From assembly GCA_965242525.1 (NCBI GenBank), contig OZ251459.1:3008001-3072000 (forward strand): a stretch of DNA of 64,000 nucleotides, in the 5' to 3' direction. This document shows, piece after piece, positions 28,690 through 50,436 of the stretch (positions are counted from its first letter, which is position 1; each line of letters opens with the position of its first letter). Position numbers and translations under genes: made by a program. The DNA is from an uncultured Candidatus Binatia bacterium (GTDB taxonomy: Bacteria; Desulfobacterota; Binatia; UBA9968; JAJDTQ01). The notes below the pieces were generated by a model, which had not been told where the DNA came from, did no database searches, and saw only the letters and a program-made list of their open reading frames with translations.

Positions 28690-28808
28690 CGAAACGTCCG
28701 GTCCATGATTCCCTCACCCTGACGCCCCTATCCCCATTCGTCCTGAGCGCAGCGAAGCGGAGTCGAAGGACGCGCTCATGCTCTCTGTCCCGATCGTTCG
28801 GAGGTTCC
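28690..28808 (-). repeat. REP/MITE-like copy overlapping the 3' end of drmB
   Basis: CCCCATTCGTCCTGAGCGCAGCGAAGCGGAGTCGAAGGACGCGC core; GAGGTTCC end. Confidence 0.7.
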
Positions 28809-30614: not shown

Positions 30615-33600
30615 GGGTTCCCGTCCCCTCCGGCCGGTTCCCGGATGTAGATGTCAACTTCCGGCTCCACGTCGCGCAGGGATCGGTTGGCGCGGAACTT
30701 GCGGTGGCGTGGAGACTCGAAATCCCTGTCGAGCATCTCGCGCAGCAAGGGCTGGCCTCCTCCCCGCTCGTATTTCTGGTACTGCATCCCGACGTTCCCG
30801 GCGCGGTAGTCCTCCACGATGGCGCACCAGGAGTCCAGCAGGTCCGTCACCCGTCCGCACACGTCGCCCAGCCGTTCCGCCTGCTCCGCGTCGTCGGCGA
30901 AGGGCTGCCGCGCCGCACGCTCGTCGAACCATTCGAGCAGCCGGCGCTCCAGGCCGGCGCGCACCTCCCCAATCTCCTGAACGCCCCTGGGCGGCGTCAG
31001 CTTCGCCTCGGCGTGGCGGGCGAGTCCCACCAGCGCGCCGGCGAAGCCGCGGTCCAGGGCGCGGGCGGAGAACGGCGTCACGCTCGATACCTCCACCGAC
31101 CGGTAGAAGGTCTCGTGGTAGTGGCGGAACCGTTCGTAGTGCGAGCGGTCGCGCGGCTTGTGGGCGTTCAGCAGGGTGACCACCAACCCCGGACGCCGGT
31201 CGTCGCGCCCCACGCGGCTCGTGGCCTGGATGTACTCCGCGTGCGTCTTGGGCTGGCCCAGCACCGCCATGAGGCCCAGCCGGGGGATGTCGAGACCCAC
31301 CGAGATCATGTTGGTGGCGATGGCGCAGTCCACGCGGTGCTTCTCGTGGAAGACGCATTCCAGACGCCTGCGCGCCTCCGCCACCTTGTCCGTGGAGACG
31401 CGCGAGGTCAGCTCCACCACCTCCGAGAACGTGGCGCGGTCCCGGAACAGGCCGCGCTTTTCGCCCATCCGCCGGCGCTCTCCGTACTGCCGGACGGTGT
31501 TCCGTACCTCCTCTTCGAGGATGCGCCGCGCGCCCCCCAGCTCCCGCAGGCTGTTGAAGTAGCCGAGCACGGTCATGTAGGGGTCCGCGGGGTTGTCCCG
31601 GTTCCTGTGTCCGCCGGCGTCCCGGTACGCCCGCTCCGCGGCGCCCATGAGCGCGAGCCAGACCTTGCGCATGACGACCTTGGGGTTGCGGCCCGGGGAA
31701 CTGACGCCGAGGTAGCGGCGTCCCGGCGCCTGCTCCACCGGCGCGGCGCGGGCGAAGAAGGAATCGCGCCGATCCGGTCCCGGGGGCGGGAAGACGTGCG
31801 TGACGGGCCGTGCGAACAGGGCCTGGATCTGGTCCTGGGCCTGCCTTACGGTGGCGGTGGACGCGACGACCTTGGGACGCGCCGCGGGCCGGTCGCCGTC
31901 GCCGCCGACCCCGCGCATGCAGAGCGCTTCGATGGCGGCCTCGTACAGCCCCACCATGGTGCCCAACGGCCCGGAGATGAGATGCAACTCGTCCTGGATC
32001 ACGAGGTCGGGGGGAGGCAGCGGACGTTCGAGACGCCGGCCCCTGCTCCCGTCGGCGGCGCCGTAGAAGCCCGCCTCGTCGCATCGGTCGGCGCCCCCCA
32101 GCAGCTTGCCGGTCGCCGCGGTCCAAGGGAGCGCCGCGAACTTGTCCACGGTGGCGACCACGAAGGCCGGAAGGCGGCGGTAGATGGGCTCGTCCACCGC
32201 CACCACCGGGAGCGGCCGGTCGCCGTTGAAGTCGCAATCGAGGTTCGCGCAGACGATGCGCAACTCGGCGGGCCGGTCGTCGTCGGGCAGCAGGGTGAAG
32301 GAAGCGGGTTCGAAAGGGGTCTCGCACCAGGGGCAGTTCTCCAGGGGGATGGGGGAGGGCTTGCCGCCGGGGTCTGCCTTGAACTGCCGGGTCCTGGAGC
32401 GCGCCGAATCCGAGCGCCGGTCGCCCTTCCGGCCCATGAGGTTGGGGGTCGCGGCCTTGCCCACCCACAGGCCGATCTCGAACGGCCATTGGCCGTAGCG
32501 GGCCGCGTCCGCCTGGCGCTCCAACTCCAGCGCGCAGACCAGGCCGGAGACCCGGGCGAGCTGGTCCAGGGTGAGCAGGCGCAGCGTATAGCGCATGACG
32601 ACGCTCACGCCCGCGCCTTGCAGCCCGTTCCGGCCCGGGTTGCGCAGTCTTCGCAGCACCATGGCGAAGGCGGCGAGGCCCAGGTACGCCTCGGTCTTGC
32701 CGCCGCCGGTGGGGAAGAAGAGCAGGTCCACCACTTCGCGGTCCGGGTCCCCCGGGTCGGCCACCCCGGGGACGTTCAACAGGAGGAACGCAAGCTGGAA
32801 GGCGCGCCAGCAGGGCAGCTCATGCCCGAGTTGACTCGCCAGCCGCCGCCGGAGGGCGCGCGCCACCGCACGGTTGGCCACCCGGAACGCATCGAGGGCG
32901 TCCGCGTCCGAGGCCAACACCGCAAGACCGCGCCCCATCCGGTCCGCGGCGACCGCGGCCCGGCGCAACAGTTCCTCCGCGGTGGCGCGCCGCGCACCCG
33001 CCAGCGTCGAGAGGTCCTCGCGCCGGGAGGCGATCCAGCCGCGGTAACGCTCCACGAGAGGCCGCAGCGCCGCCTCCGCGGCCGGTCCGTCGGGAAGCGA
33101 TCCCAAGGCGTCCATGGAAAGCTCGGCGCCCGGCACGTCCACGGTCTCGGTCTTCTCCACGTCGGCGCGGGGGATCCACGCGGTGCGCAGCGTGCGGCAG
33201 GCGCCGTCCACGATCTCCCAGTCCGCGGCCACGCCGTGGCCGGTGGCGTACTCGGGCGTGTCCGCATAATGCAGGTCCGCCACCTTCTCGTCCCAGTCCG
33301 CGGCGCGGACGCCGCGCAGGTCGGGCCGCGGCGCGAAAGCGTGCCCGCCGCGCACCTCGACCTCGGCCTGGAAGGCGTAGGCAAGGTCGGGTTTGTCGTC
33401 GTCCGGTCTGCGCCGGTTGACCAGGAACACGGACGCCGCCCGCGTCCCCGCGGGAAGCTCCGCCAGCCCCTCGGTGTCGATGGACCGCTGGACCACGTGA
33501 AGCCAGAGGCCGCCGGACTCCGGGACCTCCCGTTCGCCGGGTTGCGACAACTCTACCCGCATGGTCCGTTGGTTGGGCCGCCGTTGCCAGACGGCGTCGG

Positions 33601-34030
33601 ACTTTCCGTCGGCGTCCCGGACCTCCGCGAGCTCGTAATCGCCCCACCGCACGGTCACGGTCAGGACTTCCTCCTCCCCGGCCACCAGGAAGCTCAACCC
33701 CAGTGACGACGGAAAGAACCCCTTCCTGGCCGCCCGGCGCTCCTCCACCGACTCCTCGGCGAGGCCGCCCGCCCCGGGAACCTCGTCGATGTCGTCGTCT
33801 TCGTCCGCGTCCGCGCTCCGCTCCGGGTCCGTGCCCGACGGGATCAGGAAGCCGGTGAGATACCAGTTGGACGGCCGCACCCACCCGGGCAACCGCTCGC
33901 TTGCGTGTTCATGCCCCGCCCACGGCCCGATGAGGTCCAGGTTCAGGGCCTCCACCAGGCGTTCGCGGACGGCCGCGGAGTCGGCCAACGGGGCGTCCGC
34001 GGTTCCCGCGGCGGTTTCGGGCGGGGTCAT
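30611..34030 (-). CDS. drmA: DISARM helicase DrmA
   Basis: FPTGGGKTEAY, RYTLRLLT, ATVDKFA, IQDELHLI, ATNMISVGLDI, YIQATSRVGR; stop overlaps the drmB start (ATGA). Confidence 0.9.
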   Translation of the reverse strand: MTPPETAAGTADAPLADSAAVRERLVEALNLDLIGPWAGHEHASERLPGWVRPSNWYLTGFLIPSGTDPERSADADEDDDIDEVPGAGGLAEESVEERRAARKGFFPSSLGLSFLVAGEEEVLTVTVRWGDYELAEVRDADGKSDAVWQRRPNQRTMRVELSQPGEREVPESGGLWLHVVQRSIDTEGLAELPAGTRAASVFLVNRRRPDDDKPDLAYAFQAEVEVRGGHAFAPRPDLRGVRAADWDEKVADLHYADTPEYATGHGVAADWEIVDGACRTLRTAWIPRADVEKTETVDVPGAELSMDALGSLPDGPAAEAALRPLVERYRGWIASRREDLSTLAGARRATAEELLRRAAVAADRMGRGLAVLASDADALDAFRVANRAVARALRRRLASQLGHELPCWRAFQLAFLLLNVPGVADPGDPDREVVDLLFFPTGGGKTEAYLGLAAFAMVLRRLRNPGRNGLQGAGVSVVMRYTLRLLTLDQLARVSGLVCALELERQADAARYGQWPFEIGLWVGKAATPNLMGRKGDRRSDSARSRTRQFKADPGGKPSPIPLENCPWCETPFEPASFTLLPDDDRPAELRIVCANLDCDFNGDRPLPVVAVDEPIYRRLPAFVVATVDKFAALPWTAATGKLLGGADRCDEAGFYGAADGSRGRRLERPLPPPDLVIQDELHLISGPLGTMVGLYEAAIEALCMRGVGGDGDRPAARPKVVASTATVRQAQDQIQALFARPVTHVFPPPGPDRRDSFFARAAPVEQAPGRRYLGVSSPGRNPKVVMRKVWLALMGAAERAYRDAGGHRNRDNPADPYMTVLGYFNSLRELGGARRILEEEVRNTVRQYGERRRMGEKRGLFRDRATFSEVVELTSRVSTDKVAEARRRLECVFHEKHRVDCAIATNMISVGLDIPRLGLMAVLGQPKTHAEYIQATSRVGRDDRRPGLVVTLLNAHKPRDRSHYERFRHYHETFYRSVEVSSVTPFSARALDRGFAGALVGLARHAEAKLTPPRGVQEIGEVRAGLERRLLEWFDERAARQPFADDAEQAERLGDVCGRVTDLLDSWCAIVEDYRAGNVGMQYQKYERGGGQPLLREMLDRDFESPRHRKFRANRSLRDVEPEVDIYIREPAGGDGNP

Positions 34031-34117: not shown

Positions 34118-35341
34118 TCAACCCTGGACGGACGCCGCAGCCCTGCGCCTGACGTAGGCCATGAGGCTGGGGATGCCCGCGGCGATGGACCCGTCCGCAT
34201 CGCCTTCGGCGACGTATCCCAACAGTCGAAGGTTCTCCAGCGCGTCGTCGGCGCTCATTGGTGCCGAGTCCGAAGCCAGTCCCTCGGTCAAGCGGTCGAT
34301 GGCTGCGTCCCTGGCGATGGACCGGGCGCCGTCGGAACAGGCGCCGGCCAGGGCAGCCGCGGCCTGGGGGATCCGTAGTTCGACGATCTCTCGCCACCGC
34401 TCTGCATAGTAGCGGTTGCGAAGCTGCCGGACCGCGGGCCGCGCCCGTTGGACGTGCGCCAGGGTCAACCGCGTCTCGTGGTCACCCAAGGTCCGCAGCG
34501 CGTGTCTGCCCCACATCTGCAGGAAGTAGGGATAGCAGCCGGCGTCGTCCACCATGTGGTCCAACGCATCCCGGTCCACCTGCACGCCGCCGGTGTGGAG
34601 CGGCTTGCGGATGGCGTCTCTGGCAGCGGGTCGATTCAGCAACCCGACCGGCATGTCGCCTTCGTCCAGCCTGCTCCAGAAGCTGGAGTCCATGCGACCC
34701 AAGTGCGGCGCCAGGAGGGGCGTCCCCGCCAAGACGAGCATGAACGGCGCCTCGTCCCGAACCGCCTGGGATGCGTTCAACAGCGCCGTCCCTACTTCCG
34801 GGTCGAGGGTGTGCGCCTCATCCACCAGCAGCATCGAGGACTTGTCCCGGCAGGATCGGACCAGCGCTTCGACCCATTCCGCCTCGTCCATGCCATCATA
34901 AGTGTCGGTGGTGACGCGCTTCCCGCCCATGCGGGTCGCTCCGAGTCCCAAGCCGCCCCCGGTTTCCACCGCCCGGGTGCTCCCGGTCACGACGCTCGTG
35001 CCCAACGTTGCCCGAAAGAGCTTCGGAAGCGTCTTCAAGGCAAAGGCCGGCAGCAGGACGACGCGGATGTTCCTCGCCCCCCGCACGGCGGGCTTCGCTC
35101 CCTCCCGTTTGGCCCAGTTGAGCAGCGCCGTCTTCCCTACGCCGCGGGGACCCTGGACGGCGGCGTCATGGGCGGGGGCCTTGCCCCGGCGCAGCTCGCC
35201 CATCATCCGGTCCAGGACTCCCTGCTCATGCTCCCGCCCGGCCAGGAAGAAGGGCATGCCCCCGGCGCCGGGCCGAAACAGGTCGGTTCGGTCCACCGTC
35301 CGTGGGGTTCGTCTGCCGGGTTCGCGGGTCATCGTGTCCAT
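34118..35341 (-). CDS. AAA_16-like P-loop ATPase
   Basis: LAGREHE, GPRGVGKT, LLVDEAH, GCYPYFLQ. Confidence 0.8.
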   Translation of the reverse strand: MDTMTREPGRRTPRTVDRTDLFRPGAGGMPFFLAGREHEQGVLDRMMGELRRGKAPAHDAAVQGPRGVGKTALLNWAKREGAKPAVRGARNIRVVLLPAFALKTLPKLFRATLGTSVVTGSTRAVETGGGLGLGATRMGGKRVTTDTYDGMDEAEWVEALVRSCRDKSSMLLVDEAHTLDPEVGTALLNASQAVRDEAPFMLVLAGTPLLAPHLGRMDSSFWSRLDEGDMPVGLLNRPAARDAIRKPLHTGGVQVDRDALDHMVDDAGCYPYFLQMWGRHALRTLGDHETRLTLAHVQRARPAVRQLRNRYYAERWREIVELRIPQAAAALAGACSDGARSIARDAAIDRLTEGLASDSAPMSADDALENLRLLGYVAEGDADGSIAAGIPSLMAYVRRRAAASVQG

Positions 35342-35546
35342 GGCGCGGGTCTCGATGCCGAGCCTCGTTCCTCAACGTTTATCTCCGATGCACGAGGAAA
35401 GCCACCCAACGCCCGGCAAAGCCGGGACAGGAGCATCCGGTCTCCACGAACTTCTTTCCGAGCCCCCCTGAGCCGCCTTGACCTTCTTCGTGCCCGATGG
35501 CCGTATTGACACGGCGCGAAACCGTTAGCGGTCTCGAACGAGATGT

Positions 35547-35575
35547 TTGACTTTCGGACGCCTCGGTGCTAAGGT
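35547..35575 (+). promoter_or_regulatory. Putative sigma70 promoter of the nested + strand cassette
   Basis: TTGACT, 17 bp, TAAGGT with an extended -10 TG. Confidence 0.5.
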
Positions 35576-35665
35576 GTTTCACTATCTAACCGAGGGTACA
35601 GAATCCCTCAGATGATGGGCTTTCTCAACTATCGGAACACAACCGACGAGCATACAGGACCGCAC

Positions 35666-36019
35666 ATGATGACCGACGAGGAGACCGTCCGCAAAGCTCT
35701 CAGCACACGGCTCAAGGAGGCGAGGGAGTACCGGGGGTTCTCTCAAGAGGAAGTGGCCCGTTATCTCCGGGTGCCTCGAACGGCAATTTCCCTAATGGAG
35801 AGCGGAGCGCGGCGCGTGAGCGCTCTGGAGCTCAGCCGCCTCGCCAAGCTCTATCAGACCAGCATGGAAAGCCTCACGGGACAGGAACCGGAAGAAGCGG
35901 AACCGGAGTCTATCCGTCTGGTAGCGCGCGCTGCCGCCAAGCTATCGCCGAAAGACCGCGATGAGGTCCTGCGTTTCGCACAGTTCTTGCGTACGAGGGT
36001 GTCGGATGAACCGGCATAA
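35666..36019 (+). CDS. XRE-family HTH regulator
   Basis: RLKEAREYRGFSQEEVA...AISLMESGARRVSALEL. Confidence 0.9.
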   Translation: MMTDEETVRKALSTRLKEAREYRGFSQEEVARYLRVPRTAISLMESGARRVSALELSRLAKLYQTSMESLTGQEPEEAEPESIRLVARAAAKLSPKDRDEVLRFAQFLRTRVSDEPA

Positions 36020-36033
36020 ATTGTGAGGATACG

Positions 36034-36519
36034 ATGAACCTGTCATCATTGTTCGAACGATTTCGCCTGAAGAACGTGCACCTGGGGCCGCGGTGGGCCA
36101 ACGTTGAATTCGAGTTCAAGGACGAAGACCGGAGCGCCGCATGGGAATTGTACGTCGAGATGCTGACTCGGATCGTCACGCAACCACTACCGGCGAGTGC
36201 GGGGGATGAACGAACTGCCCTGGAAAGCGTCCATTCGCTGTTTCCGACCACCCGTGAAATTCTGCGCCGACACGGAAGCGGCGCCGTGCAGTTCAGCAAG
36301 GTGGCGATTCCCATCCTGAACCAGGTGGTGCGCCCCTTTACCGCGAAGTGGCACAGAGAATCCCTGTCGGGCGCTTTCGACGACGCGAAAAGGCGCAAGG
36401 AGTTTCGGGGAGAGATGGAACATCTGCGGACGAACCTGCGTCACTACAACCGCATGCTGGCGGAGATCGCCGACGTGGAAGACTTGACCGACCTGGAGCA
36501 CTTGGACGAAGGAAAATGA
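36034..36519 (+). CDS. Hypothetical all-helical protein
   Basis: Well-formed ORF with RBS; motifs AAWELYVEMLTRI and LNQVVRPFTAKWH; no function recognised. Confidence 0.8.
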   Translation: MNLSSLFERFRLKNVHLGPRWANVEFEFKDEDRSAAWELYVEMLTRIVTQPLPASAGDERTALESVHSLFPTTREILRRHGSGAVQFSKVAIPILNQVVRPFTAKWHRESLSGAFDDAKRRKEFRGEMEHLRTNLRHYNRMLAEIADVEDLTDLEHLDEGK

Positions 36520-36523
36520 ACCG

Positions 36524-37000
36524 ATGGCGGAAGAAATCCGGAACGTATTCATCAGCCACCGGCACGAGGACGACGCCGGCCTGGCGGAACTCAAGCGGCT
36601 GGTCGGGCAGCATGGCTTGACTTGCCGTGACTACTCCATAACCGCGGACAATCCGAACAATGCCCACAATGGGCAATACATAAAGTCCGAGATCCTCGCT
36701 CCGCGCATACGCCAAGCCGGCTGTCTGGTGGTGTACGTATCGAAAAGGACGAAACAGAGCGAGTGGGTGGAATGGGAGATCGACTACGCCCAGAAACAAG
36801 GCAAGCGGATCGTGGGCGTCTGGGCGCGCGGAGACCTGGATTGCGACCTGCCGGCCGCCCTGGATCGTCACGCCGACGCCATGGTCGGCTGGAGCGGCGA
36901 GAACATCATCGACGCCATCAACGGCGGGTCCGACACATGGTACAACCCGGACGGGTCCATGTACGGTTACCGCGCCATTCCACGAGTTGTCTGCCAATGA
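36524..37000 (+). CDS. TIR domain protein (ThsB/DUF1863-like)
   Basis: RNVFISHRHED, LVVYVS, SEWVEWEIDYA (catalytic Glu position), GKRIVGV. Confidence 0.85.
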   Translation: MAEEIRNVFISHRHEDDAGLAELKRLVGQHGLTCRDYSITADNPNNAHNGQYIKSEILAPRIRQAGCLVVYVSKRTKQSEWVEWEIDYAQKQGKRIVGVWARGDLDCDLPAALDRHADAMVGWSGENIIDAINGGSDTWYNPDGSMYGYRAIPRVVCQ

Positions 37001-37010
37001 GGATAACCCG

Positions 37011-37775
37011 ATGCCGAAACTCTATTCATATGTCGTGGCAAGGGATTACGGGTTCGCTCCGAACCCCTTCTGCGGTTTCTGCACGCTGGCGACATGCAAA
37101 CCGGAGATACGCCGGAAAGCCGCTGTCGGCGATTGGATCATGGGGACCGGATCGAAACGGACGGAGCGAGAGTCGCACGTGGTTTACGCCATGTGCGTGA
37201 GTGAAGTGATGACGTTCAACGAATACTGGCAGGATACCCGTTTCCGAAACAAGCACCCTGACCTGCACGCCAGCATTCGCAAGGCGTTCGGCGACAACAT
37301 CTACCACCGCAACGACGCCACCGGCAGGTGGCGACAGGCCGACTCTCATCACAGTTGCGAAGACGGGACCCCGAATCGCCAGAACGTCGATCACGATACC
37401 CGCGTGGACCGGGTTCTTGTCAGTGACGATTTCATCTACTGGGGTGGTCATGGTCCGAAGATTCCTGCGTCTTTCAGAAAAGATGTCTGTAAGAGCGGAT
37501 CTGGCCACAAATGCAATTTCCCGGCCAAGATCGTGGACGAATGCATCGCGTGGTTGCGTGGTCTTGACGGAAGAGGCTACCGCGGCGATCCGCTGGAGTG
37601 GGACAGGAAGAGCATGGGGCTGCCGTGGCACAAGCGACGAAGGATGCCGCCTTTCCAGCCACGCTCCGCTGTCGCGGCCCGGGCGGCGATTGTCGGCTTG
37701 AAGGCTTTTCAACGGACACACCGCCTGCGCGGGTTGTCGGTTCGGCAGATGGTGGAAGAGGGACGACGGTATTGA
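37011..37775 (+). CDS. Nmad2 (nucleotide-modification-associated domain 2) protein with antitoxin-like C-terminal tail
   Basis: LYSYVVARDYGFAPNPF.GFCTLATCKP.IR, GDNIY, VLVSDDFIYWG; the domain appears to end at GDPLEW (about 37600), followed by about 57 extra residues ending LSVRQMVEEGRRY. Confidence 0.8.
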   Translation: MPKLYSYVVARDYGFAPNPFCGFCTLATCKPEIRRKAAVGDWIMGTGSKRTERESHVVYAMCVSEVMTFNEYWQDTRFRNKHPDLHASIRKAFGDNIYHRNDATGRWRQADSHHSCEDGTPNRQNVDHDTRVDRVLVSDDFIYWGGHGPKIPASFRKDVCKSGSGHKCNFPAKIVDECIAWLRGLDGRGYRGDPLEWDRKSMGLPWHKRRRMPPFQPRSAVAARAAIVGLKAFQRTHRLRGLSVRQMVEEGRRY

Positions 37776-38191
37776 CGGCGTTCGTTCTCGATTGCTCGGT
37801 CACCATGGCCTGGATGTTTCGCGACGAAGCGACCGATGCCACCGATCGGCTGCGGGACATGCTGAACGATGATCGTGCCCTGGTTCCCGCCCTCTGGCCC
37901 ACAGAAACCGCCAACGCGCTTCTCGTTGCGACCCGGCGGGGACGTATCGCCTTGGACGAACTGCCGCGACTTCGCATGCAACTCAATGCGCTGCCGATCG
38001 ACATCGACCCGATCTCAACCGCCCATACCTGGGGGCCGGTGCTCGATCTCGCACACGCGCACCGGCTCACCGTCTATGATGCGACGTATCTCGAACTTGC
38101 CATGCGGAGACGGCTTCCTCTGGCCACCCTGGATCGTGCCCTCCACAACGCCGCGCGGACGGAAGGGTGCGAGATGCCGGGGTCCGCGTAA
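37772..38191 (+). CDS. vapC: VapC PIN-domain toxin
   Basis: TTG start overlapping the upstream stop; FVLDCS, ETANAL, LTVYDATYLELA, LATLD. Confidence 0.88.
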   Translation: MTAFVLDCSVTMAWMFRDEATDATDRLRDMLNDDRALVPALWPTETANALLVATRRGRIALDELPRLRMQLNALPIDIDPISTAHTWGPVLDLAHAHRLTVYDATYLELAMRRRLPLATLDRALHNAARTEGCEMPGSA

Positions 38192-38205
38192 GACAGAGTG
38201 GGAAC

Positions 38206-39285
38206 ATGGACAACGTGTCGTGGTTTGCGCAGTACTGCGAGAACGCCGAACGCACGGACCAGCTCGTCGGTCACCGGAGGCACGTCGAACTGCTGGCGGC
38301 GGGTCTTGTCGGTGAAACCGGCAGCATTCTCGCGGAGTTGAAGAAGAAGGACAGGGAGAAGACGGCCTATCCTTTCGACCGGGAACGTCTCGAAGAAGAG
38401 ATTGGCGACGTTTTGTGGTACCTCGCTCGTCTGGTTGGAGTCCTGGCGCCATCCGAAGTAACGAAGCTGGACGACTCGGCTGCCCGTGCGGAGCAGCAGA
38501 ACGGCGATGACCTCGCGAATGCAATCGCCCTCGGCAGTGCCGTCGGCGCCATGCTCGACACGTTGCGGGAAGACTCCGGCAACGATGCCTCGCAGCGGCT
38601 CGGAGCGGTTTGGCGAGCCCTTGGTCAAGTCGCTGCCGGTTTGAAGATCGAGCTTCGCGATGCGGCTTGCAGGAACCGTCAGAAGACACGAAGCCGATGG
38701 CCAAGCGAGCGAAAGCCCGTAACGCTGTTCGACGACCGATTTCCCGAGGAGGAGCAGATTCCGCACAAACTGAACGTCGAGTTTCGGGAGATCGAGCATG
38801 GCGACAAGCCCGTCGTCATCCTGCGTTGCAACGGCATCAACGTTGGAGATCCCCTGACCGACAACATCGGGGCGGCCGATGGCTACCGATTCCACGACGT
38901 TTTCCATTTCGCGCATGCCGTGTACCTCGGATGGTCGCCGGTCTCGCGCGGCCTCCTGAAATGCAAGCGGAAAAGCAGCCCAGCCATCGACGAGAACGAG
39001 GACGGAGCACGCGCGGGGATCATCGAGGAGGCGGTGTCGGCGATCGTCTTCAGCCAAGCGAAGGAAACACGCTTCTACAAAGGCATCGATCACGTCGATT
39101 ACGATCTGCTCAAGACCATCAAGGGGTTCGTGAAGGGCTTCGAGGTTGACCGTGCGCCGTTGTGGCAGTGGGAAGAAGCCATTCTCAACGGCTACCGCGT
39201 ATTCCGGGAGCTTCAGGATCACGGAGGCGGGAAATTGACCCTGGACTTGCTCAATAGGGATCTCCGCTACGAGGCGCCGTCGTGA
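38206..39285 (+). CDS. MazG-like NTP pyrophosphohydrolase with MazG-C domain
   Basis: GLVGETGS...EEEIGDVLWY (MazG); GDPLTDN, DGYRFHDVFH, GWSPV, KRKS, EDGARA..IEE (MazG-C). Confidence 0.85.
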   Translation: MDNVSWFAQYCENAERTDQLVGHRRHVELLAAGLVGETGSILAELKKKDREKTAYPFDRERLEEEIGDVLWYLARLVGVLAPSEVTKLDDSAARAEQQNGDDLANAIALGSAVGAMLDTLREDSGNDASQRLGAVWRALGQVAAGLKIELRDAACRNRQKTRSRWPSERKPVTLFDDRFPEEEQIPHKLNVEFREIEHGDKPVVILRCNGINVGDPLTDNIGAADGYRFHDVFHFAHAVYLGWSPVSRGLLKCKRKSSPAIDENEDGARAGIIEEAVSAIVFSQAKETRFYKGIDHVDYDLLKTIKGFVKGFEVDRAPLWQWEEAILNGYRVFRELQDHGGGKLTLDLLNRDLRYEAPS

Positions 39286-40456
39286 AAAGCGGGAGCTCCG
39301 GTTGGAGCGGTTGCGGGCTTCCTGCACGGGCACTGCTGTTTTCGGCAATCCACTTTTCGATCCGCTCGTTCAATTCCCACTTCGGCGGGAAGAACGGTTT
39401 GGGCACCGGCCCTGCCGCCGCGAATTTCTGCTTGATGCGTCCGCGCCCGGCACGTCCCTTGACCTCGGGATGAGTGGCCCGGGTGTACTTCGAGATCTCG
39501 CACAACAGGTTCTGGACGTCGATGGGCCGCAGCGATCGACCCCATAGACCGTCAAAACGCAGGTCGTTACGGCGGAACTCTTCTTCCTGGAGATCGGACA
39601 GCCACAGGATCGTATCTTCCGGTGAATAGTCCCCGAGTGATTCGAAGCATTTCGACAACCCGTCCAGCGCGCCCGGTCCGGCCACCACGAAACTCCATTC
39701 GGAGTGGGACGTCAGCGTCGTGTAATTGAGATCGATTGCATACTGGAAGGCGAGAAACGGCCCCAAGGTCGGATACGACAGGAGGAGGGCGTATGCGTCC
39801 TTCAGGGATCGGGAGCGTCTGAGCTTCGCCGGAAGCCGGTCGTCGAGCATGCGGCGCAGCAGTTGGAGATGCATTCGATGCTTCGGCACGCCGGAAATTC
39901 CTCCAGACGGCATGATGTAGGCCGCCGAGTAGATCGCTGCACCAAGCCCGCGGCGTCTGGCGAGCAATTCGTCGCATGCGAGGTAATCGAACCGGTCCGC
40001 CGCGGGACACCCCATATCGCGCACGATGCTTTCCCATGTGTCGATCTTGTTGAAGATCTTGAACAGCATGGTCCGGAGAAACAGCGTGTCGTCATTCGCG
40101 TCGTGGTCCGAATACGCCATGTGGATCAAGTACTGGCTCACTCGGTCCGCGGCGCGGAAGACGTTCGTGAATCGATAGTTCGACAGCACCGGATCGCTGG
40201 TCCACGGGCCCGGCTGCCCGGAAACGCGCCGCAGGTAAACGCGATGACGTTCGGCAGCGAAACGCCAGAGGGTCGAATAGAGGATGGACGGCTTGGGAAG
40301 AGCGCGTTTCGCGAAGGACGCCGTTGTTGACCTTCCAGCGGTTTCATCGGCCGGTTGCGTCGAGGAACTCTGCGGCTCAGCCTTCGGCGACCCGGCGCCG
40401 CCGACCGGGACCTCGGAGCCGATGGCGGGCGGGGCATCCATCGCGGCGTCACGCAT
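39251..40456 (-). CDS. 5-hmdU DNA kinase helical-domain (aGPT-Pplase1-like) protein
   Basis: FAAERHRVYLRR...PWTSDPVL..YRFTNVFRAADRVSQYLI, FKIFNK, YSAAYIM, GPFLAFQYAIDLNY, GPGA.DG, QNLLCEISKY; start overlaps the drmMI stop. Confidence 0.8.
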   Translation of the reverse strand: MRDAAMDAPPAIGSEVPVGGAGSPKAEPQSSSTQPADETAGRSTTASFAKRALPKPSILYSTLWRFAAERHRVYLRRVSGQPGPWTSDPVLSNYRFTNVFRAADRVSQYLIHMAYSDHDANDDTLFLRTMLFKIFNKIDTWESIVRDMGCPAADRFDYLACDELLARRRGLGAAIYSAAYIMPSGGISGVPKHRMHLQLLRRMLDDRLPAKLRRSRSLKDAYALLLSYPTLGPFLAFQYAIDLNYTTLTSHSEWSFVVAGPGALDGLSKCFESLGDYSPEDTILWLSDLQEEEFRRNDLRFDGLWGRSLRPIDVQNLLCEISKYTRATHPEVKGRAGRGRIKQKFAAAGPVPKPFFPPKWELNERIEKWIAENSSARAGSPQPLQPELPLFTTAPRSGDPY

Positions 40457-43400
40457 CAGTTCTGTCCCATGGGAAAAGCGGCTCCGCCACCCATGCCGCG
40501 CCACCGCGCGTCGCCTCCGTCCGCCCCGCCCCCCGGCCGCGTTTCTCTCCCGCCCTTGTCACCGTCCTTCCGGCGCGGGCTTCCTCCGCGGCGCGGGCGG
40601 CGTTCAGTTCCAGGAGGCGGGCGAGGACTTCGTCGCGGGTTTCGTCGGGCCAGCGGTAGCGGTAGGGCTTCTTTCGGTTGCCCTGTCCTTCTTCGTCGAT
40701 GTCGTAGTCGAGGAGGAAGTCGCAGTGGGTGGCGATGTCCTGCCAGCCGTAGGCGTCGAGGACGGCGCGGTCCATGTGGGCGTGGAAGCCGCGGAGCTTG
40801 GCGATGTCGGGATCGTCCTCGTTGGGGTCGTGGAAACGGTTGTAGGTCTTGGTGAGCCCCTCGTCGTTCCTGACCATGAGGGCGGCGCGGAAGTCGTAGT
40901 ACGCCTCACCGGCGGCTTCGAGGTCGGGGCGGGTCTCCCACTGTTCGGGGAAGGGGAAGGTCTCGAAGCAGTCGGACGGCGAGTAGTTGATGTCGTCCTT
41001 CATTGTAGAGCTGAAGAACCTGGACCATATTCCATGAACATTCGATTGCAGGATACTAAATGCTGAGTAACGTCCGAGGGGAAATACAACCAACTTGTGT
41101 GAGAAAACCAAGCCCGTCGGAAGGAATACAAAGTAACTCGTGTTGCTCACAATTGGACAGACCAGAACTCGATTCAAGCGAACGACGCCCGAGTAAAGAC
41201 CGGGGCGTTTCTCAGCATAGTGCCACCAGCGTTCACGAAGCGCCTTTCGATTCTGGCCGTCGCGTTTCGGCTTCACCCGCTCCTCCACGATCGCCACCAA
41301 CTCCGGCCAGTCCTCTGCCACCGGATCCGGGTAGTCGTGCGGCACGACCGGCTGCCGCCGCAACTCCCGCCTCCGTTCTCCGTCCGTATCTGCCCATGAC
41401 GCCCCAACGCCCTCCCGTTCCCGGCGGAGCGGGTAGTCGTGAAAGTTGATGACATAGCGGTGGTAGGCATGCGTCGGGCTCGTGTTCACTTCCTCGCCTC
41501 CGATATAAGGGAAGATCGCCTCGCGGTTTCGCGGGTTCACTTCGATGAGCCGCTGCATCTCGGCCAGTGGCGAGGCGATCCCATCCGTGTCAGTGTCGTC
41601 GAAGGTGAAGCCTATACCGAGGACGAAACTTCCGATGAAGCCCTTTCCGGCATTCGCTGCCAGCCGCGCCGGGTCGCCGTGGCCGCCCCTGTGGAACAGA
41701 AACGCAGTAATCGTCTCGGCCGCCCCATCGTCCAAACGCTTCACCCCCGGAAACCGCCCCTTGAAGACGTGCAGCACGCTCACCACCACGGCCGCCAAGC
41801 CGGGCCACTTGACCCGGCGGCGCGCCCGGTAGATCTCGCCGCCGTGCTCGCAGATCCATCGCAACCCGGTCGAGCGCGTGTCGCCCTGGGCGATGGTGTT
41901 GGTGGCGATGAGGCCGAAGGCGCCGTCTTTGCGGACCAGGTCGAACGCTCGGCGGAAGAAATGGGCTACCAGGTCGGAGTTGCCGTGGCTTTCCGGGTGG
42001 ACCTGTTTGAGCCAGTCCGGGTAGCCGGGAACGTTGGCCGCCACGACCGTGTTCTTGCCCGCGAACGGCGGGTTCCCCACCATCGCGTCGAACCCCGGGT
42101 TCTCCCGCTCGAAGACCTCCGGGAACTCGACCTCCCAGTGGAACGGAGCGAGGGGCGGCTCGCCGTCCCGCAACTCTTCGAGCCAGCTTCGGTAGCGGTG
42201 CGCCTCGCCGCGCTCGACCGCATCGGCGACCTGCGTGCGCAGGGCCTCGCGCTCCTTCGGTTTCGCCTTTTCGAAGAACGCGGCTAGGACCAGGGCGCCG
42301 AAGACGCCCGCTTCGTCCAGTTCGTCCCGGGCGTCCTGCCACAACAGGCGCCGCTCCCGGTCGGAGACCTCTTCGCCGGCGTCCCGGATGCGTTCGCGGA
42401 GCGCCGCAATTTTCGCCAGGCGCTCCCGTATCCGCATGACCTCGAACCCGGCCTGGAACTGCGGAGCGTCCCCTTTCCAGTGGAACGCCTCGATCTGCGT
42501 GCGGGTGAGGCCCACCAGCGAGTCGCCGTGCCGCAGGGCGTGGTCCAGGAAGGTCAGGGGGTGGTCCCTGGCCAGAGTGATGAGCCAGAGCGACAGTTTG
42601 GCGAGGTCCACGGCCACGGGGTTGCGATCCACTCCGTAGAGGCAGCGTTGGGCGACCAGGCGGCGGGCGAACACCACTTCGTTCTCGTCGGGCGGAATCT
42701 CGGGTACGACGTCGTGGGCGCGCCATGAATCCACCAGGAGGTCGGCGAGTTGGCGGCAGGCTTCGACCAGGAAGGCGCCGGAGCCCATCGCGGGGTCGCA
42801 CACCTTGAGGTCGAGTATCCGTTCGGGCCGGGGCGCCTTGCCCCCTTCCGCGCGCAAGCGCTCCAGGATCGGTTCCAGGGTGCGGCGCACGATGGGTTCG
42901 GTCAACTCGCGGGGCGTGTAGTGCGAGCCGGAACTCCGCCGTTCCTTGCTCGGTTGCAGGATCATGGCGTGCGGAGGCGCCAAGTCCGGGGTCGCGTCCC
43001 CGTCGATGACGGGACCGAGGGCGGCGTGCAGGGCCTCCACGGTGTCGGCTTCGTGGACGGCCCGCTTCACCCGGTCGGTGAGCTTGCGGTCGGTGCGGTC
43101 CTGGACCCATTTGGCGCGTCCGGCCGGTGCTTCTCGCAGCAACGCCTCCACGTCCACGGTGGCGGGCGCGCCCCCTTTCTTCGCCGCCTTGATGGCCGCG
43201 GAGCGGCCGGACGCGGTCTCCAGCCGGAACCCCATCATGGTCTCATAGACGGAGCCGATGTGCTCCACGTCCAGGGCGCGGTAGGAGATGCGCTCGCCGT
43301 CCAGGACCATGAGCTTCTCCAGCACCCGGTAGATGGCGCCATCGGGCACCAGGGGCGGTTCGATCCCTTCGTGGACCTGCCGGGCGCCGCCCTGGCCTCG

Positions 43401-44644
43401 GCCCTCCAGGAAACGGTACCGGTCGGGGTCGAACAGGGCGCCGCGGCGCGGCGGCAGCGACATGCCGCCCGAGCGGGCGCCGTCGTGGACCATGCGGAAC
43501 AGGACCAGGAGTTGCGCGTACGCGCCGTAGCGCTGGTCCATGGTGTCCGGGTGCAGGGCCCCGCGTCTTCCCGCAGCCGCTGGTGCAGGCCGGCCAGCGA
43601 GTAGGCGCCCAGGAAGGTCTCGTCCTGGGGCAGCACGTCCCGTTCCTCCGCGTACAGCAGGAAGACCAGACGCAGCACGAGGGTGAGCAGGCCGCGGTAA
43701 ACCTCGTCTCGGTCCCTGTCCAGGGGCTCGCGGAGGAGTGCGCCCTTGGACGCGCCGTGGGCCGCCTGGAAACCGCGCAGCAACTCGTAGAGCGCGTGCA
43801 GCACCTGTTCGGCCAGGCGCTCGCTCACCTCGTTCTGGAACTTGCGGCTGCTTTCCAGCAACGCGGCCAGGCGCCGCGGGCGCGGCTGGGTCAACAGCCG
43901 CGTCTGGCCCAGCAGCAGACGCATGGCGGTGCAGATGGGCCGACCCGCGGTCTGCACCATCTCCGACACCCGGAAGTCGAGCCAGCCGGAACTTTCGCCG
44001 CGCGGCGCGGAGATCAGCCGGAGCGAGACGCCGTTGAAGAGCAGGCCCGCGGGCGCGCCGGTGTGCCGCAACAGGCGCTCCATGCGCCCGTGGGGCGAGA
44101 CTTCGAGGCCGCCCGTGCGAACCGCGCGGTCGAAGTCCTCGCCCGGCTCGCAGACCCGAACGAGGAGCTGCCAGAGGGAAGGCATATCGGAAGGCGCATC
44201 GGATACGGGGGTCGGATCTGGCCGGTACGCCGGCGCGCCCTCCCGCACTTCGAACCCGGCTCCTGCCGCGGGGACGTCCTGCAACGGCTCCGCGCGGACC
44301 GCGAAATCGGGGCGCTGGACCTCGCCGGAATCCCCCAGCGCCGCTTCGAGTTCCGGCGGGACCGGCGCCCCGTCCGTACCGGCGTAACCCCTGGGAGAGA
44401 AGCTCCAGCCGAGCACGGACCCGGCAAAGGCGCGGAAGTCCGGCAACCACGGCCGAGGCTCGTCCCCGGAGCGAAAGCTGCGCTCCTCCGTGCACTCCCG
44501 CAACAACCGCTGCCCCTCGGCGTCCCGCCGGTCCAGTATCGCCCCGGCCCTGACCAGCGCCGGCGCCGAGACCACCAGCCCCGTGGGCCGGACGAAGCCC
44601 AGCCATTCGAGATGGGCGGCAATGTGCGGGTCGGGATTGGCCAC
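40449..44644 (-). pseudogene. drmMI: DISARM class I adenine methyltransferase DrmMI, frameshifted near 43560
   Basis: N-part HLEWLGFVRPTGLVVS...LRLVFLLYAEER; C-part GSHYTP, DPAMGSGAFL, GNPPF and an MmeI-like TRD; frames switch at the GGGCCCC run (43556-43562). Confidence 0.85.
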
Positions 44645-44660
44645 GAACCATCAGCCGGCG

Positions 44661-44762
44661 GTTGACATGAGGCAAGAAAAGGACGACAAAAGGAACATGC
44701 TTGCGCAAGCAACCCAATAGGCACTTGTTGACATGCGGCAAGAAAAGAACGACAAAAGGAAC
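44661..44762. repeat. Two 36-bp direct repeats separated by 30 bp (possible orphan CRISPR mini-array)
   Basis: GTTGACATGAGGCAAGAAAAGGACGACAAAAGGAAC (44661-44696) and GTTGACATGCGGCAAGAAAAGAACGACAAAAGGAAC (44727-44762), 2 mismatches. Confidence 0.85.
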
Positions 44763-44923
44763 CGAAGGGGTTTCATAAAGCAACTGGGGATGGATTTCAA
44801 ACGGAGAGACGGCAAGCAGAGGAAGGCTAGGCACGCTTATTGCTTCCCAAGTATGGAGAGAAGTGTTCCTCAACGATCCTTTCAGGGACACTCTTGCAGA
44901 GTCTAAGCAACAAAGGAAACGGT

Positions 44924-45163
44924 ATGAGCAATTTCAGGATTTATGGCGGCCGGCAAGAGTTGAAGGGCATGAACCTTTGGGACGCTTTCGCCGATGTGTT
45001 CACGCCACCGGAGAGCTTGAAGATGGCGCGCCTGGATTATGGGTACATGGCGCGACTCCGGGACCTCCGTCGCATCGGCGAAGACTTCCGCAAGGCCGAG
45101 GCGCGCCTTGGCCTTGAACGCTCATCCACAGAGTCCGTGAACCACCATGACCACGGAACGTGA
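44924..45163 (+). CDS. Small hypothetical protein upstream of DUF2335
   Basis: 79-aa ORF with RBS-like AAGGA, DLRRIGEDFRKA helix, overlaps the start of the next gene. Confidence 0.55.
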   Translation: MSNFRIYGGRQELKGMNLWDAFADVFTPPESLKMARLDYGYMARLRDLRRIGEDFRKAEARLGLERSSTESVNHHDHGT

Positions 45164-45671
45164 CCCCCATCCCCCCAAGGATGCTCAATCCGAGATCCAA
45201 CGGATATCCGATACCGACTCCGATACCGACCAAGACCTTGCCCGGCTTGTAGCGTCGTTATCGGACGACAAGAAAATCGAGCAGATCCTCAATTTACTGG
45301 AAGTCCGCATCGAAACTAAATTCTCGGCTTTCTCGGGACCTCTGCCGCGTCCGGAGGATTTCGAGAAATACAACGAGATCCTGCCAAACGCGGCTGACCG
45401 CATCCTGACCATGGCGGAGAAGGAACAGCAGATCCGCGAGGATGGTCAAGCCGGGACACTGGCCAATAACCGGTTGCTAGTCAACCGAGCGACGTTGTTG
45501 GGAGTTGGCCTCATCGTCGTAGCCGGCATTGCCACATGGTTGGGTCACACGGAAATAGCCTTGCCGTTGGGGCTTGTGGGGACAGTCGCCGCTCTTCTTC
45601 GTCAAATCATGGACTGGCTCGACCAACGCCAATCGAGGCGCCCTCCTTCTCCACCTGAAGAAACCGGATGA
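45147..45671 (+). CDS. DUF2335 membrane protein
   Basis: FSGPLPRPEDFEKYNEILPNAADRILTMAEKEQ followed by two hydrophobic helices. Confidence 0.85.
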   Translation: MTTERDPHPPKDAQSEIQRISDTDSDTDQDLARLVASLSDDKKIEQILNLLEVRIETKFSAFSGPLPRPEDFEKYNEILPNAADRILTMAEKEQQIREDGQAGTLANNRLLVNRATLLGVGLIVVAGIATWLGHTEIALPLGLVGTVAALLRQIMDWLDQRQSRRPPSPPEETG

Positions 45672-45691
45672 CCGCCTCCCGTTCGGGGCAG

Positions 45692-48979: not shown

Positions 48980-49178
48980 GGCGAGGCCTCTCCAGGGGCG
49001 GGAGTATAGACGGACGGAGCGGCGATTTCATCCCCGCCATGGAACGGCGTCCGCCGGGGCCGCCCTTACACTGCCGCCCCGTTCTTGTTACATTTCCGTG
49101 GACTCGCGTGGATTCGCGGCGGCTTCGGAGGAGTCATCGGGGGAATCGCTGCGGCGCCGGGGACACCGGGGAGACGAC

Positions 49179-50171: not shown

Positions 50172-50275
50172 TACCCTGTAACAGTCATTCTGTCAGCAGG
50201 GATACAGCGCGAGACATGTTTCCCGTGCATGACGAGATGTTCCACGCCAGTGACTTGGTCACTGTTACAGGGTAC
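50171..50275. mobile_element. 105-bp MITE with perfect 15-bp terminal inverted repeats
   Basis: GTACCCTGTAACAGT (50171-50185) and ACTGTTACAGGGTAC (50261-50275); no internal ORF. Confidence 0.7.
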
Positions 50276-50277
50276 CA

Positions 50278-50387
50278 GGAAACTCTGAACGATTGGCTCC
50301 GTTCGTCCTGAGCGTAGCGAAGCGAAGTCGAAGGACGCGCTTTCCCATGGGGAGAGGCGCCTCGATCCGGAATCGATCAGAGGTCCC
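50278..50387 (-). repeat. 110-bp REP-carrying MITE-like element
   Basis: GGAAACTCTGAAC...core...GATCAGAGGTCCC; same length as the copies at 16401 and 16976. Confidence 0.8.
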
Positions 50388-50436
50388 TATAGCAACCCGC
50401 GTCCCGTGAAGTGGCGCGGGACCCTCCGAGGACGCC

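Follow-up and report, generated by a model that had tools for sequence, protein, structure and literature searches.

The described systems nearest to the locus reported here are those predicted or validated by DeWeirdt, Mahoney and Laub (the DefensePredictor systems; Science 2026, PMC13092281), whose accessible text gives 42 validated Escherichia coli transcription units. It counts '5-hydroxymethyluracil kinase' and 'thymidylate synthase' among the newly validated defence domains, and its Fig. 3C legend describes validated E. coli system(s) with thymidylate synthase (TS), deoxynucleoside monophosphate kinase (dNMPk), 5-hydroxymethyldeoxyuridine (5-hmdU) kinase (5hmdUk) and NMAD. The legend and text of Fig. 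6F place aGPT-Pplase, MazG, MazG-C, dUTPase, NMAD and uracil-DNA glycosylase (UDG) in predicted systems; the MazG/MazG-C/aGPT-Pplase/NMAD set is stated as not validated, MazG-C is termed 'a predicted nucleotide kinase', and Burroughs et al. are credited with predicting several of these systems earlier. Here we report a gene cassette from the genome of an uncultured Candidatus Binatia bacterium (assembly GCA_965242525.1, here G000; high G+C, 4.23 Mb, 98.96% complete), found in a stretch of 64,000 nucleotides that we call the window (contig OZ251459.1, positions 3,008,001 to 3,072,000). The cassette encodes an XRE-family regulator, a helical protein (unk161), a ThsB-type TIR protein, Nmad2, a VapC-like PIN protein and a MazG-MazG_C fusion, followed by a convergent gene for a protein with an HMUDK_hel domain. 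These genes had been listed in a first-pass annotation made from the letters of the window, and their domain calls were reproduced by Pfam. On balance we read the cassette as a lineage-specific variant of a widespread, conserved candidate anti-phage family, carried within a class 1 DISARM locus, where it lies as cargo between drmMI and drmA; that it is a defence system of the TIR-Nmad2 family we consider probable.

The domain sets named for the DefensePredictor systems (PMC13092281) match the variants mapped here, a comparison made by legend and text, which do not give the presence of a TIR or the identity of NMAD with Nmad2; features peculiar to the window's lineage are the insertion of VapC, the tail on Nmad2 and the location inside DISARM. 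The first-pass annotation had called the system uncharacterised and knew of no experiments on this combination. As a candidate defence system it stands, and the aGPT-Pplase/MazG/MazG-C/NMAD set is indeed unvalidated in that text, but the domains had already been flagged by the field and a sister variant, with TS, dNMPk, 5hmdUk and NMAD, has apparently been validated in E. coli (PMC13092281). New here are the bounds drawn around the family, the strict pairing of TIR and Nmad2 with its predicted interface, the assignment of Nmad2 to the PUA-like domains, the substitution pattern of the accessory genes, with interchangeable UDG and HMUDK_hel, and an antitoxin-like tail fused to Nmad2. A literature search on Nmad2, Pfam accessions and 'nucleotide modification associated domain' found the paper of DeWeirdt et al. 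(PMC13092281) and its preprint as the sole relevant work. A search by DNA similarity, with no search at the protein level, matched the DNA of one related locus (L023) to none of 20,395 E. coli records. The domains had reportedly been defined or treated by Burroughs and colleagues in 2015 and by Iyer and colleagues in 2013.

Phage thymidine-hypermodification clusters (M6, PaMx11 and ViI) are a second point of reference. According to the accessible text of Lee et al. (2021, PMC8989533), the proven 5-hmdU DNA kinases are the P-loop proteins M6 gp54, PaMx11 gp49, and ViI gp67 and gp243, while aGPT-Pplases are glycosylase-like helix-hairpin-helix proteins, frequently occurring as a pair of paralogues, of which clade 2 alone is shown to be an amino acid:DNA transferase (AADT). 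The window's HMUDK_hel protein is homologous to PaMx11 gp50, and related bacterial loci repeat the order dNMP kinase, HMUDK_hel, TS-like. Unlike the phage clusters, the window has no P-loop kinase, TS-like hydroxymethylase or amino acid:DNA transferase, and Nmad2 and the TIR are missing from the phage records, Nmad2 being without a match in 50,697 of them.

Thoeris resembles the cassette in its TIR. The window TIR is of the ThsB type with an invariant catalytic-type Glu, and the related loci often have several TIR genes and in some cases a SLOG-family protein. Unlike Thoeris, the window has no ThsA; the obligate partner of its TIR is the PUA-like Nmad2, and the pair is usually accompanied by MazG-MazG_C and by a UDG-like protein or HMUDK_hel. 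No cassette protein matches the PADLOC ThsA model, the STALD SLOG domain (PF18185) has no match in G000 (nor did any control genome match), and the only SIR2_2 gene of G000 lies about 300 kb away. Canonical Thoeris was rejected, as there is no ThsA.

Payne et al. (2024, bioRxiv 10.1101/2024.01.29.577857) describe defence genes that lie inside DISARM, BREX, Hma and type I restriction-modification (R-M) loci. In the accessible text, genes embedded in DISARM are frequently defence genes, and embedded genes are co-oriented with their host system in 96.7% of cases. The cargo of the window likewise lies between DISARM core genes, but its four unusual proteins (Nmad2, MazG_C, HMUDK_hel and unk161) match none of the PDC or HEC models in PADLOC 2.0.0, a release that contains the candidate models of Payne et al.

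Survey of related loci

Nmad2 (37011-37775, + strand; Pfam Nmad2 4.5e-75) was used to collect related loci. Of the homologues found, 1865 had E <= 1e-5, and 26 were aligned. The alignment was scanned over one genome per GTDB species; of 539 confirmed matches we retained the best 80, which yielded 79 loci, each taken with 10-kb flanks. Gene families were counted with in-house hidden Markov models (HMMs) within 7 kb of Nmad2, with the window included (n = 80). The window's Nmad2 subfamily shows about 55-65% identity across phyla, and the closest Nmad2-bearing relatives of the window are metagenome-assembled genomes (MAGs) of Vicinamibacterales.

A TIR gene lies directly upstream of Nmad2 in 78 of the 79 loci, in many phyla (tblastn with the window proteins), and in L030, the sole exception, Nmad2 lies at base 67 of the contig, whose end cuts the locus. 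By HMM, TIR was found in 79/80 loci. The invariant core of the family is a ThsB-type TIR and the PUA-like domain Nmad2. Around it, MazG-MazG_C was found in 55/80 loci, mostly directly downstream of Nmad2, and the UDG-like family (PF03167) in 34, HMUDK_hel in 33 and a TS-like family (PF00303) in 12. Further families were unk161 (40/80), SLOG cluster2 (PF18163; 20/80), M78 peptidase (11/80), XRE (10/80), a dCTP-deaminase-like family (8/80) and VapC (4/80). At least one of MazG, UDG, HMUDK_hel and TS lies near the TIR-Nmad2 pair in 70 of the 80 loci. The co-occurrence that the first-pass annotation had asked to see surveyed is therefore real and is not a chance neighbourhood.

The accessory genes follow a pattern. 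UDG-like genes occur with MazG in all 34 of their loci and with HMUDK_hel in only 1, and in L043 and L053 HMUDK_hel stands directly after MazG, in the position held by UDG elsewhere. The combination of HMUDK_hel and MazG, which is the window's type, was found in 18 loci. TS-like genes are accompanied by HMUDK_hel in 12/12 loci, and in 16 loci, among them 11 of the 12 with TS, the gene directly upstream of HMUDK_hel encodes a thymidylate-kinase-family P-loop (dNMP) kinase. Ten loci have HMUDK_hel within a single open reading frame (ORF) of about 565-580 amino acids (aa), where it is extended at the N terminus by about 240 aa, and in 8 of these ORFs (L006-L009, L014, L026, L030 and L032) the match of the dNMP-kinase HMM lies immediately upstream of the helical domain. 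MazG-MazG_C is the fusion partner of HMUDK_hel in L044 and L065. The core is thus usually joined to a pyrimidine-nucleotide/DNA module, consisting either of MazG-MazG_C followed by a UDG-like protein or HMUDK_hel, or of a dNMP-kinase/HMUDK_hel/TS-like trio that mirrors the kinase, gp50 and TS of the phage clusters. It is also often joined by a second pair of a partner and a TIR, either unk161-TIR or SLOG-TIR; unk161 and SLOG cluster2 occur together in just 2 loci.

Two plasmid loci have further genes. In L091 (Gloeothece citriformis PCC 7424 plasmid pP742404, 17977-22523), a gene annotated as a 'CBASS cGAMP-activated phospholipase' leads a series of co-directional genes that continues with HMUDK_hel, MazG, TIR and Nmad2, and the phospholipase-annotated gene overlaps that of HMUDK_hel by 11 nt; this locus is possibly a variant with a conventional membrane-attacking effector. 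L090 (Sinorhizobium chiapasense plasmid, 44494-52294) contains three TIR genes, Nmad2, a 532-aa TS-like protein, a TylF/MycF/NovP-type O-methyltransferase and HMUDK_hel; from the methyltransferase one may suspect that the hydroxymethyl group is modified further.

When 401 genomes of the phylum were sampled evenly, Nmad2 was found in 6 and HMUDK_hel in 4, with both together solely in the window's genome; against 4 of 401 background genomes, the presence of HMUDK_hel near Nmad2 in 33 of 80 loci is far above chance. Plasmid records numbered 17 for Nmad2 and 23 for HMUDK_hel, and cultured carriers of the family include Rhodococcus jostii RHA1 (pRHL1), Gloeothece PCC 7424 (pP742404) and S. chiapasense (plasmid). 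Of the loci, 9-12 contain type I R-M gene clusters, and DISARM embedding, seen in the window, recurs in L003, L004 and L033, which bears out the defence context expected by the first-pass annotation. An alternative is that the genes are not immune at all and serve nucleotide salvage, house-cleaning or a secondary-metabolite pathway in a variable region. The MazG, UDG, dCTP-deaminase-like, TS-like and dNMP-kinase families do have housekeeping relatives; however, the distribution is patchy, plasmids carry both marker genes, the TIR keeps its catalytic Glu, DISARM and R-M genes are neighbours, and system(s) with related domains have been validated for defence in the account of DeWeirdt et al. (PMC13092281). 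We regard a non-immune role as very unlikely.

The TIR-Nmad2 pair

The window TIR (36524-37000, +) matches Pfam ThsB_TIR (3.3e-23) and, over positions 2-155 of 155, the PADLOC ThsB model (PDLC00418, 5.7e-62). Its putative catalytic residue Glu85, in the motif WVEWE that the first-pass annotation had singled out for mutation, is invariant in 111/111 TIR sequences from the loci. The Nmad2-linked TIRs have a common C-terminal extension ending in a nearly invariant Cys. Two TIR clades can be read from the leaf order of a midpoint-rooted FastTree tree without support values, a weak division.

The structure of Nmad2 was modelled with AlphaFold2 from our own alignment, with a moderate predicted local distance difference test score (pLDDT 70.3). 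The top Foldseek matches were ASCH and EVE domains (E 0.01-0.08, probability 0.95 at E 0.01). VIA-align gave YTH at Z 8.1 (root-mean-square deviation 3.8, 134 residues aligned), ASCH at Z 6.8, EVE at Z 6.5, VcaM4I at Z 5.8, McrB-N at Z 5.7 and the DrmA N terminus at Z 5.5, values in the range (Z 5-8) that the tool warns can be common. The assignment follows from the top 22 rows being all PUA-like domains, a single superfamily of modified-base readers, since the Z values alone are moderate. Nmad2 models as a PUA-like (YTH/ASCH/EVE) fold over residues 1-200 and would be reader-like. Its invariant residues include C24, C29, H113 and H114 and the aromatics W42, Y72, W73, Y98 and W107.

TIR is predicted to bind Nmad2. 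The modelled complex scored ipSAE 0.83 (runs 0.83, 0.81 and 0.83; best of 3 controls 0.00), with a partner pLDDT of 91 and at least 95% of contacts common to the runs. This mark was reached by 58/80 solved complexes and 2/110 mismatched pairs, counts that hold only roughly here because our own alignments were used. The predicted interface joins the TIR extension (residues 113-119, 137-139 and 146-158) to Nmad2 residues 84-93 and the conserved 113-117. Thirteen long Nmad2 proteins were found, and the fusions among them include TIR+Nmad2 (P0128), Nmad2+Macro (P0123) and Nmad2+MazG_C (P0130). Six others of 432-468 aa are fusions of Nmad2 and Nmad3 (PF18754; P0121, P0122, P0126, P0127, P0129 and P0131). 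We infer that the pair may combine sensor and enzyme in one unit, the reader-type domain governing the activity of a TIR NADase.

MazG-MazG_C and HMUDK_hel

The MazG gene (38206-39285, +) encodes MazG, an NTP pyrophosphohydrolase (Pfam 8.6e-05), fused to MazG_C (1.9e-76). At least 54 of 58 sequences keep its acidic residues E37, E65 and D68, pointed to in general terms by the first-pass annotation. The conserved MazG residues enter into a second explanation, a reversed, Thoeris-like wiring: TIR pairs with Nmad2, unk161 or SLOG would sense the phage and make an NAD+-derived signal, and MazG-MazG_C would be the effector, with MazG_C binding the signal, MazG then hydrolysing (d)NTPs, and UDG or HMUDK_hel attacking uracil-rich or modified DNA. 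Several TIR genes per locus, as in multi-ThsB Thoeris, would fit this wiring (30/80 loci have at least 2 TIR matches, and the SLOG-type loci add a TIR_2 protein, described below), as would the position of MazG-MazG_C directly downstream of the core in most of its 55 loci and the fact that no other conventional effector was found in at least 4 loci. It is opposed by the loci with neither MazG nor another nucleotide gene nearby (10/80), by the occurrence of MazG-MazG_C with HMUDK_hel in loci without a TIR, and by the term 'a predicted nucleotide kinase', rather than sensor, that DeWeirdt et al. give to MazG-C (PMC13092281). We judge this wiring quite unlikely.

In SLOG-type loci, which have SLOG cluster2 where others have unk161 (e.g., L016:8158-9408, -, and L027:8203-9441, -), a protein of about 415 aa with a TIR_2 domain (residues ~183-266) stands beside the SLOG gene. 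With its SLOG neighbour it makes a third kind of partner-and-TIR pair in the family.

The HMUDK_hel gene (39251-40456, -, with 40504 as an alternative ORF edge; Pfam HMUDK_hel 1.1e-91) converges on MazG and, with Met17 (40456) taken as the start, has an 8-nt overlap with the stop of drmMI in ORF coordinates. The helical domain, which resembles that of clade-1 aGPT-Pplases, covers residues 75-350 of 417. Pfam detected no P-loop kinase domain in the protein, and the dNMP-kinase HMM built from related loci matched 16 loci but not the window. C335-E336 is invariant in 34/34 sequences and is reminiscent of the clade-2 enzymes, for which Lee et al. describe an essential Cys with a Glu close by (PMC8989533). 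An AADT active site was considered and not adopted: hhalign placed the invariant Cys on the AADT Cys at E 0.077 and a probability of 0.7%, which is suggestive only.

The protein matches 485 phage records, mostly ViI-like and M6/PaMx11-like, and the best rows show 25-37% identity along most of the protein. In PaMx11 it matches gp50, which is flanked by gp49 and the TS-like gp51. Pfam identified PaMx11 gp50 as HMUDK_hel (PF18723, 5.6e-41) and gp46 as ADDT (1.6e-27), and assigned gp49 to P-loop kinase families only. The first-pass annotation had described a convergent gene resembling a 5-hmdU kinase; the HMUDK_hel domain and the convergence are right, but the kinase is not, as the window protein has the helical domain alone and the proven 5-hmdU DNA kinases are separate P-loop proteins (PMC8989533). 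The Pfam name does fit those bacterial ORFs in which a kinase match lies just upstream of the helical domain. Equating the bacterial dNMP kinase with the phage kinase gp49 was also rejected, because only the P-loop aligns.

By analogy with these phage homologues, a link of the cassette to modified pyrimidines is plausible. That the cue would be a non-canonical pyrimidine is suggested by the interchange of UDG-like and HMUDK_hel genes together with phage homologues that act on 5-hmdU. The nucleotide module may supply or expose that cue or may, alternatively, be the effector.

Another possibility is that the host modifies its own DNA in an epigenetic or R-M-like manner, installing a mark derived from 5-hydroxymethyluracil (5-hmU) that TIR-Nmad2 reads. 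Here one can cite the homology or analogy of the HMUDK_hel, TS-like and kinase genes to phage hypermodification genes and the naming, in the Pfam description, of Nmad domains for nucleotide-modification contexts. However, ThyA-type TS or hydroxymethylase genes (PF00303) had 0 matches in G000, in a search matched by 10/14 control genomes, and ADDT (PF18724) likewise had 0 matches there, in a search in which 0 control genomes matched but which works on PaMx11 gp46. The absence of 5-hmdU synthesis and amino acid:DNA transferase genes, first noted for the window, thus extends to the genome, and with these genes the host cannot run phage-type hypermodification on its own DNA. G000 presumably uses another thymidylate route; ThyX was not searched for. 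The cassette also has no P-loop 5-hmdU kinase, and Nmad2 is missing from the phage records searched. Self-modification is accordingly rated as highly improbable.

VapC and the Nmad2 tail

The VapC-like gene (37772-38191, +; Pfam PIN 3.9e-07) begins with a TTG that overlaps the Nmad2 stop codon (TTGA, 37772-37775), as is common where an antitoxin gene meets its toxin gene. Nmad2 ends in an in-frame tail of about 50 aa (37611-37772) that occupies the place of a VapB antitoxin. The tail is retained in 14 further protein clusters of 253-255 aa, whereas most family members end at about 200 aa, and one homologue (P0021) has a different C-terminal tail. No ORF for a separate upstream vapB gene is present at the locus, so that of a VapBC pair the PIN toxin alone was found. 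By tblastn VapC was found in 3/79 loci, at the same position in L003 and L004 and about 6.4 kb away in L044, and it is read as a lineage-specific insertion of the closest relatives only.

The tail is not a recognisable VapB: it has no NCBIfam match and a single unnamed 61-aa relative, and tblastn found no significant match to it elsewhere in G000 (best E 0.042). The suggestion that it neutralises VapC is therefore kept as one drawn from position alone. A paralogous vapC (37% identity; G000:C1:1938591-1939500) is also preceded by a longer ORF and has no separate antitoxin gene; the C terminus of that ORF resembles the end of the Nmad2 tail at the motif level only. This hints that a short toxin-binding tail and VapC can be appended to other proteins.

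unk161 and the XRE gene

unk161 (36034-36519, +) encodes a 161-aa helical protein without a Pfam, PADLOC or NCBIfam match. As 27 of 42 copies are directly followed by a TIR gene, it appears from gene order to be a conserved accessory partner of TIR genes. Twelve residues, mostly polar, are invariant in 28 sequences. The AlphaFold2 model is a helical bundle (pLDDT 89.4), and fold searches returned generic helical bundles only (best Z 9.1, below the tool's bar for helical proteins; Foldseek E >= 0.87). DUF6650, a lead from the ESM Atlas (score 0.84), was rejected because Pfam gave a DUF6650 match for 0/28 members of the family, even with E values up to 1 allowed. DUF6650 itself is listed among the domains newly validated for defence by DeWeirdt et al. 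(PMC13092281).

The first gene of the cassette encodes a CapH-like XRE-family helix-turn-helix regulator (35612-36019, +; Pfam HTH_3 1.4e-11, PADLOC capH 7.3e-14). XRE and M78 peptidase genes are infrequent in the family, as counted above, and no M78 partner of the XRE protein was found in the window. The operon had been described as led by a promoter, which was not borne out: a consensus scan of 35300-40600 found 0 sigma-70-like promoters, with 1.0 expected in shuffles, and TTGACT at 35547 is a good -35 box but its -10 box matches at just 3/6 positions.

DISARM setting

The window contains drmD, drmMI and drmA in order, all on the minus strand, which places the locus in class 1 DISARM by PADLOC. 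The DISARM helicase gene drmA, on the left flank of the cassette, lies at 30611-34030 (PADLOC DrmA PDLC02575, E 2.2e-270; Pfam Helicase_C). On the right flank, drmMI (40449-44891; PADLOC DrmMI PDLC02643, E 0, 1041 bits) encodes the DISARM N6-adenine methyltransferase; it also matches Pfam Eco57I, MmeI_Mtase and N6_Mtase, and the matching part of the ORF starts from about residue 447. The SNF2 helicase gene drmD of class 1 DISARM follows at 45692-48979 (PADLOC DrmD PDLC02621, E 5.2e-303). The gap between drmMI and drmA is about 6.4 kb long and of lower G+C, the cassette having 0.60-0.61 and the flanks 0.66-0.73.

The location between drmMI and drmA, given by the first-pass annotation, is supported by PADLOC, but a further gene in this gap had been missed. 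It lies between drmA and the XRE gene (34118-35341, -), is co-oriented with DISARM and encodes a 407-aa STAND-like P-loop ATPase (Pfam AAA_22 4.2e-07, AAA_16 2.3e-05, nSTAND1 3.2e-05). The protein has no PADLOC match, and its own HMM found the window alone among the window and the 79 related loci, and it does not belong to the conserved TIR-Nmad2 family.

In two Vicinamibacterales MAGs (L003 and L004), a block of unk161-TIR-Nmad2-VapC-MazG and HMUDK_hel likewise lies between drmA and drmMI. There the place of the STAND-like ATPase in the gap is taken by an XRE-M78 pair together with about 3 kb of further genes, and L003 has an extra TIR gene. As its content differs between the window and these loci, the drmA-drmMI gap is a variable cargo site.

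Proposed function

The first steps of the wiring that we put forward, tentatively and as a possibility for the whole of it, would be taken by MazG-MazG_C and HMUDK_hel, acting on non-canonical pyrimidine nucleotides or DNA, of the dU or 5-hmdU type, that arise in infection. Nmad2, held on the C-terminal tail of the TIR, would bind the resulting modified base or nucleotide. Once bound, it would switch on the TIR, which would consume NAD+ or make a signal derived from ADP-ribose, and the infected cell would be halted. In the window's lineage a VapC RNase would have been added, tethered via the antitoxin-like tail fused to Nmad2. The mechanism suggested in the first-pass annotation, in which hydroxymethylated DNA would be marked or sensed, modified dNTPs depleted and a signal sent by the TIR, is likewise a conjecture.

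Several findings weigh against taking the cassette as one defence system of this family, in addition to the moderate Nmad2 model and the Z values already given. The 79 loci come from the best 80 of 539 matches and so represent the window's Nmad2 subfamily only, and no TIR lies close to any of five more divergent Nmad2 loci taken from the phylum sample (upstream side present in 3, cut in 2). Ten of the 80 TIR-Nmad2 loci have none of MazG, UDG, HMUDK_hel and TS within 7 kb. VapC sits between Nmad2 and MazG, so that tight coupling of these two is not required, and the strongly conserved face of Nmad2 is the one predicted to contact the TIR, so that its conservation need not mean a ligand pocket. 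The window is without the P-loop kinase and TS-like genes that accompany HMUDK_hel in phages and, presumably, in the validated variant. PADLOC 2.0.0, a check proposed in the first-pass annotation, matched ThsB, capH and the DISARM genes but contains no model for Nmad2, MazG_C, HMUDK_hel or unk161. The main cassette operon is oriented opposite to DISARM, unlike the 96.7% of embedded genes reported as co-oriented by Payne et al. Finally, drmB is split over two minus-strand ORFs (29589-30614, DrmB profile 4-253 of 606, and 28776-29555, profile 378-601). The split points to a frameshift, a stop or an assembly error, and the DISARM locus may be decaying or not intact.

Loci collected from the HMUDK_hel side also tell against a single system. 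All 7 that were sampled independently of Nmad2 have no TIR or Nmad2 nearby: L086 is XRE-M78-HMUDK_hel-MazG-DCD (DCD, dCTP deaminase), L087 is HMUDK_hel-MazG-DCD, L088 has HMUDK_hel with a convergent MazG and an M78 gene, L097 and L098 are XRE-M78-HMUDK_hel, and L099 and L100 have HMUDK_hel with none of the other profiled families. Nmad2 was absent anywhere in 5/5 HMUDK_hel carrier genomes searched whole. The nucleotide module can stand alone, and the TIR-Nmad2 pair rarely does, given that 70/80 of its loci carry the module; the dependence is one-sided, an asymmetry that fits TIR-Nmad2 as an add-on to older nucleotide-based modules.

These loci also lend themselves to a mosaic, in which independent modules share an insertion hotspot and each works alone: unk161-TIR-Nmad2, a VapC toxin-antitoxin, MazG-MazG_C with HMUDK_hel, and the STAND-like ATPase. 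Such a mosaic would account for the HMUDK_hel loci without TIR-Nmad2 (with MazG or DCD and often XRE-M78), for the ten TIR-Nmad2 loci without nucleotide genes, for a VapC confined to the closest relatives, for an HMUDK_hel gene on the other strand that overlaps drmMI, and for the differing content of the drmA-drmMI gap. It does not sit well with the presence of the nucleotide module at 70/80 TIR-Nmad2 loci against a genome background of about 1% for HMUDK_hel, with tight co-directional TIR-Nmad2-MazG-UDG/HMUDK runs that recur in many phyla, or with the Nmad2+MazG_C fusion P0130. We think the mosaic unlikely. The single operon of the first-pass annotation survives as a recurrent association and not as an indivisible unit, since VapC is restricted to the closest relatives and HMUDK_hel modules occur without TIR-Nmad2.

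Phages with uracil, 5-hmU or hypermodified thymine evade many restriction systems, and to our knowledge bacterial detection of such DNA beyond type IV nucleases is poorly known. The family described here joins an immune TIR enzyme, a reader-type domain and homologues of phage hypermodification machinery in many phyla and on plasmids, and the comparative map turns a vague 'nucleotide-modification' annotation into hypotheses that can be tested, also in the cultured carriers named above. Going beyond the wiring proposed above, TIR and Nmad2 might couple recognition of a phage-specific modified pyrimidine, of the 5-hydroxymethyl-dU type, to NAD+ chemistry, either depleting NAD+ or conjugating ADP-ribose to the bound nucleotide as a new immune signal, with HMUDK_hel, kinase, TS and MazG as domesticated phage hypermodification enzymes turned on phages. 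We consider this conjunction improbable. If true, it would be a Thoeris-like pathway triggered by base modification, and methylation-based DISARM would be covered against phages with modified DNA.

Neighbouring genes

No PADLOC match to DrmC was found among the ORFs scanned, with some small ORFs left unscanned. Directly downstream of drmB lies a gene for a HEC-01A ATPase (27410-28621, -; PADLOC 3e-162). HEC-01 is an Hma-embedded candidate system that was picked for testing, according to the accessible text of Payne et al. (2024, bioRxiv 10.1101/2024.01.29.577857). Neither a TOPRIM partner of HEC-01A nor drmC was located. As HEC-01A adjoins drmB, this DISARM locus has a second cargo, either within it or next to it. 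On the other side of the cassette, between drmMI and drmD and on the opposite strand to both, lies a gene for a predicted DUF2335 membrane protein (45147-45671, +; Pfam).

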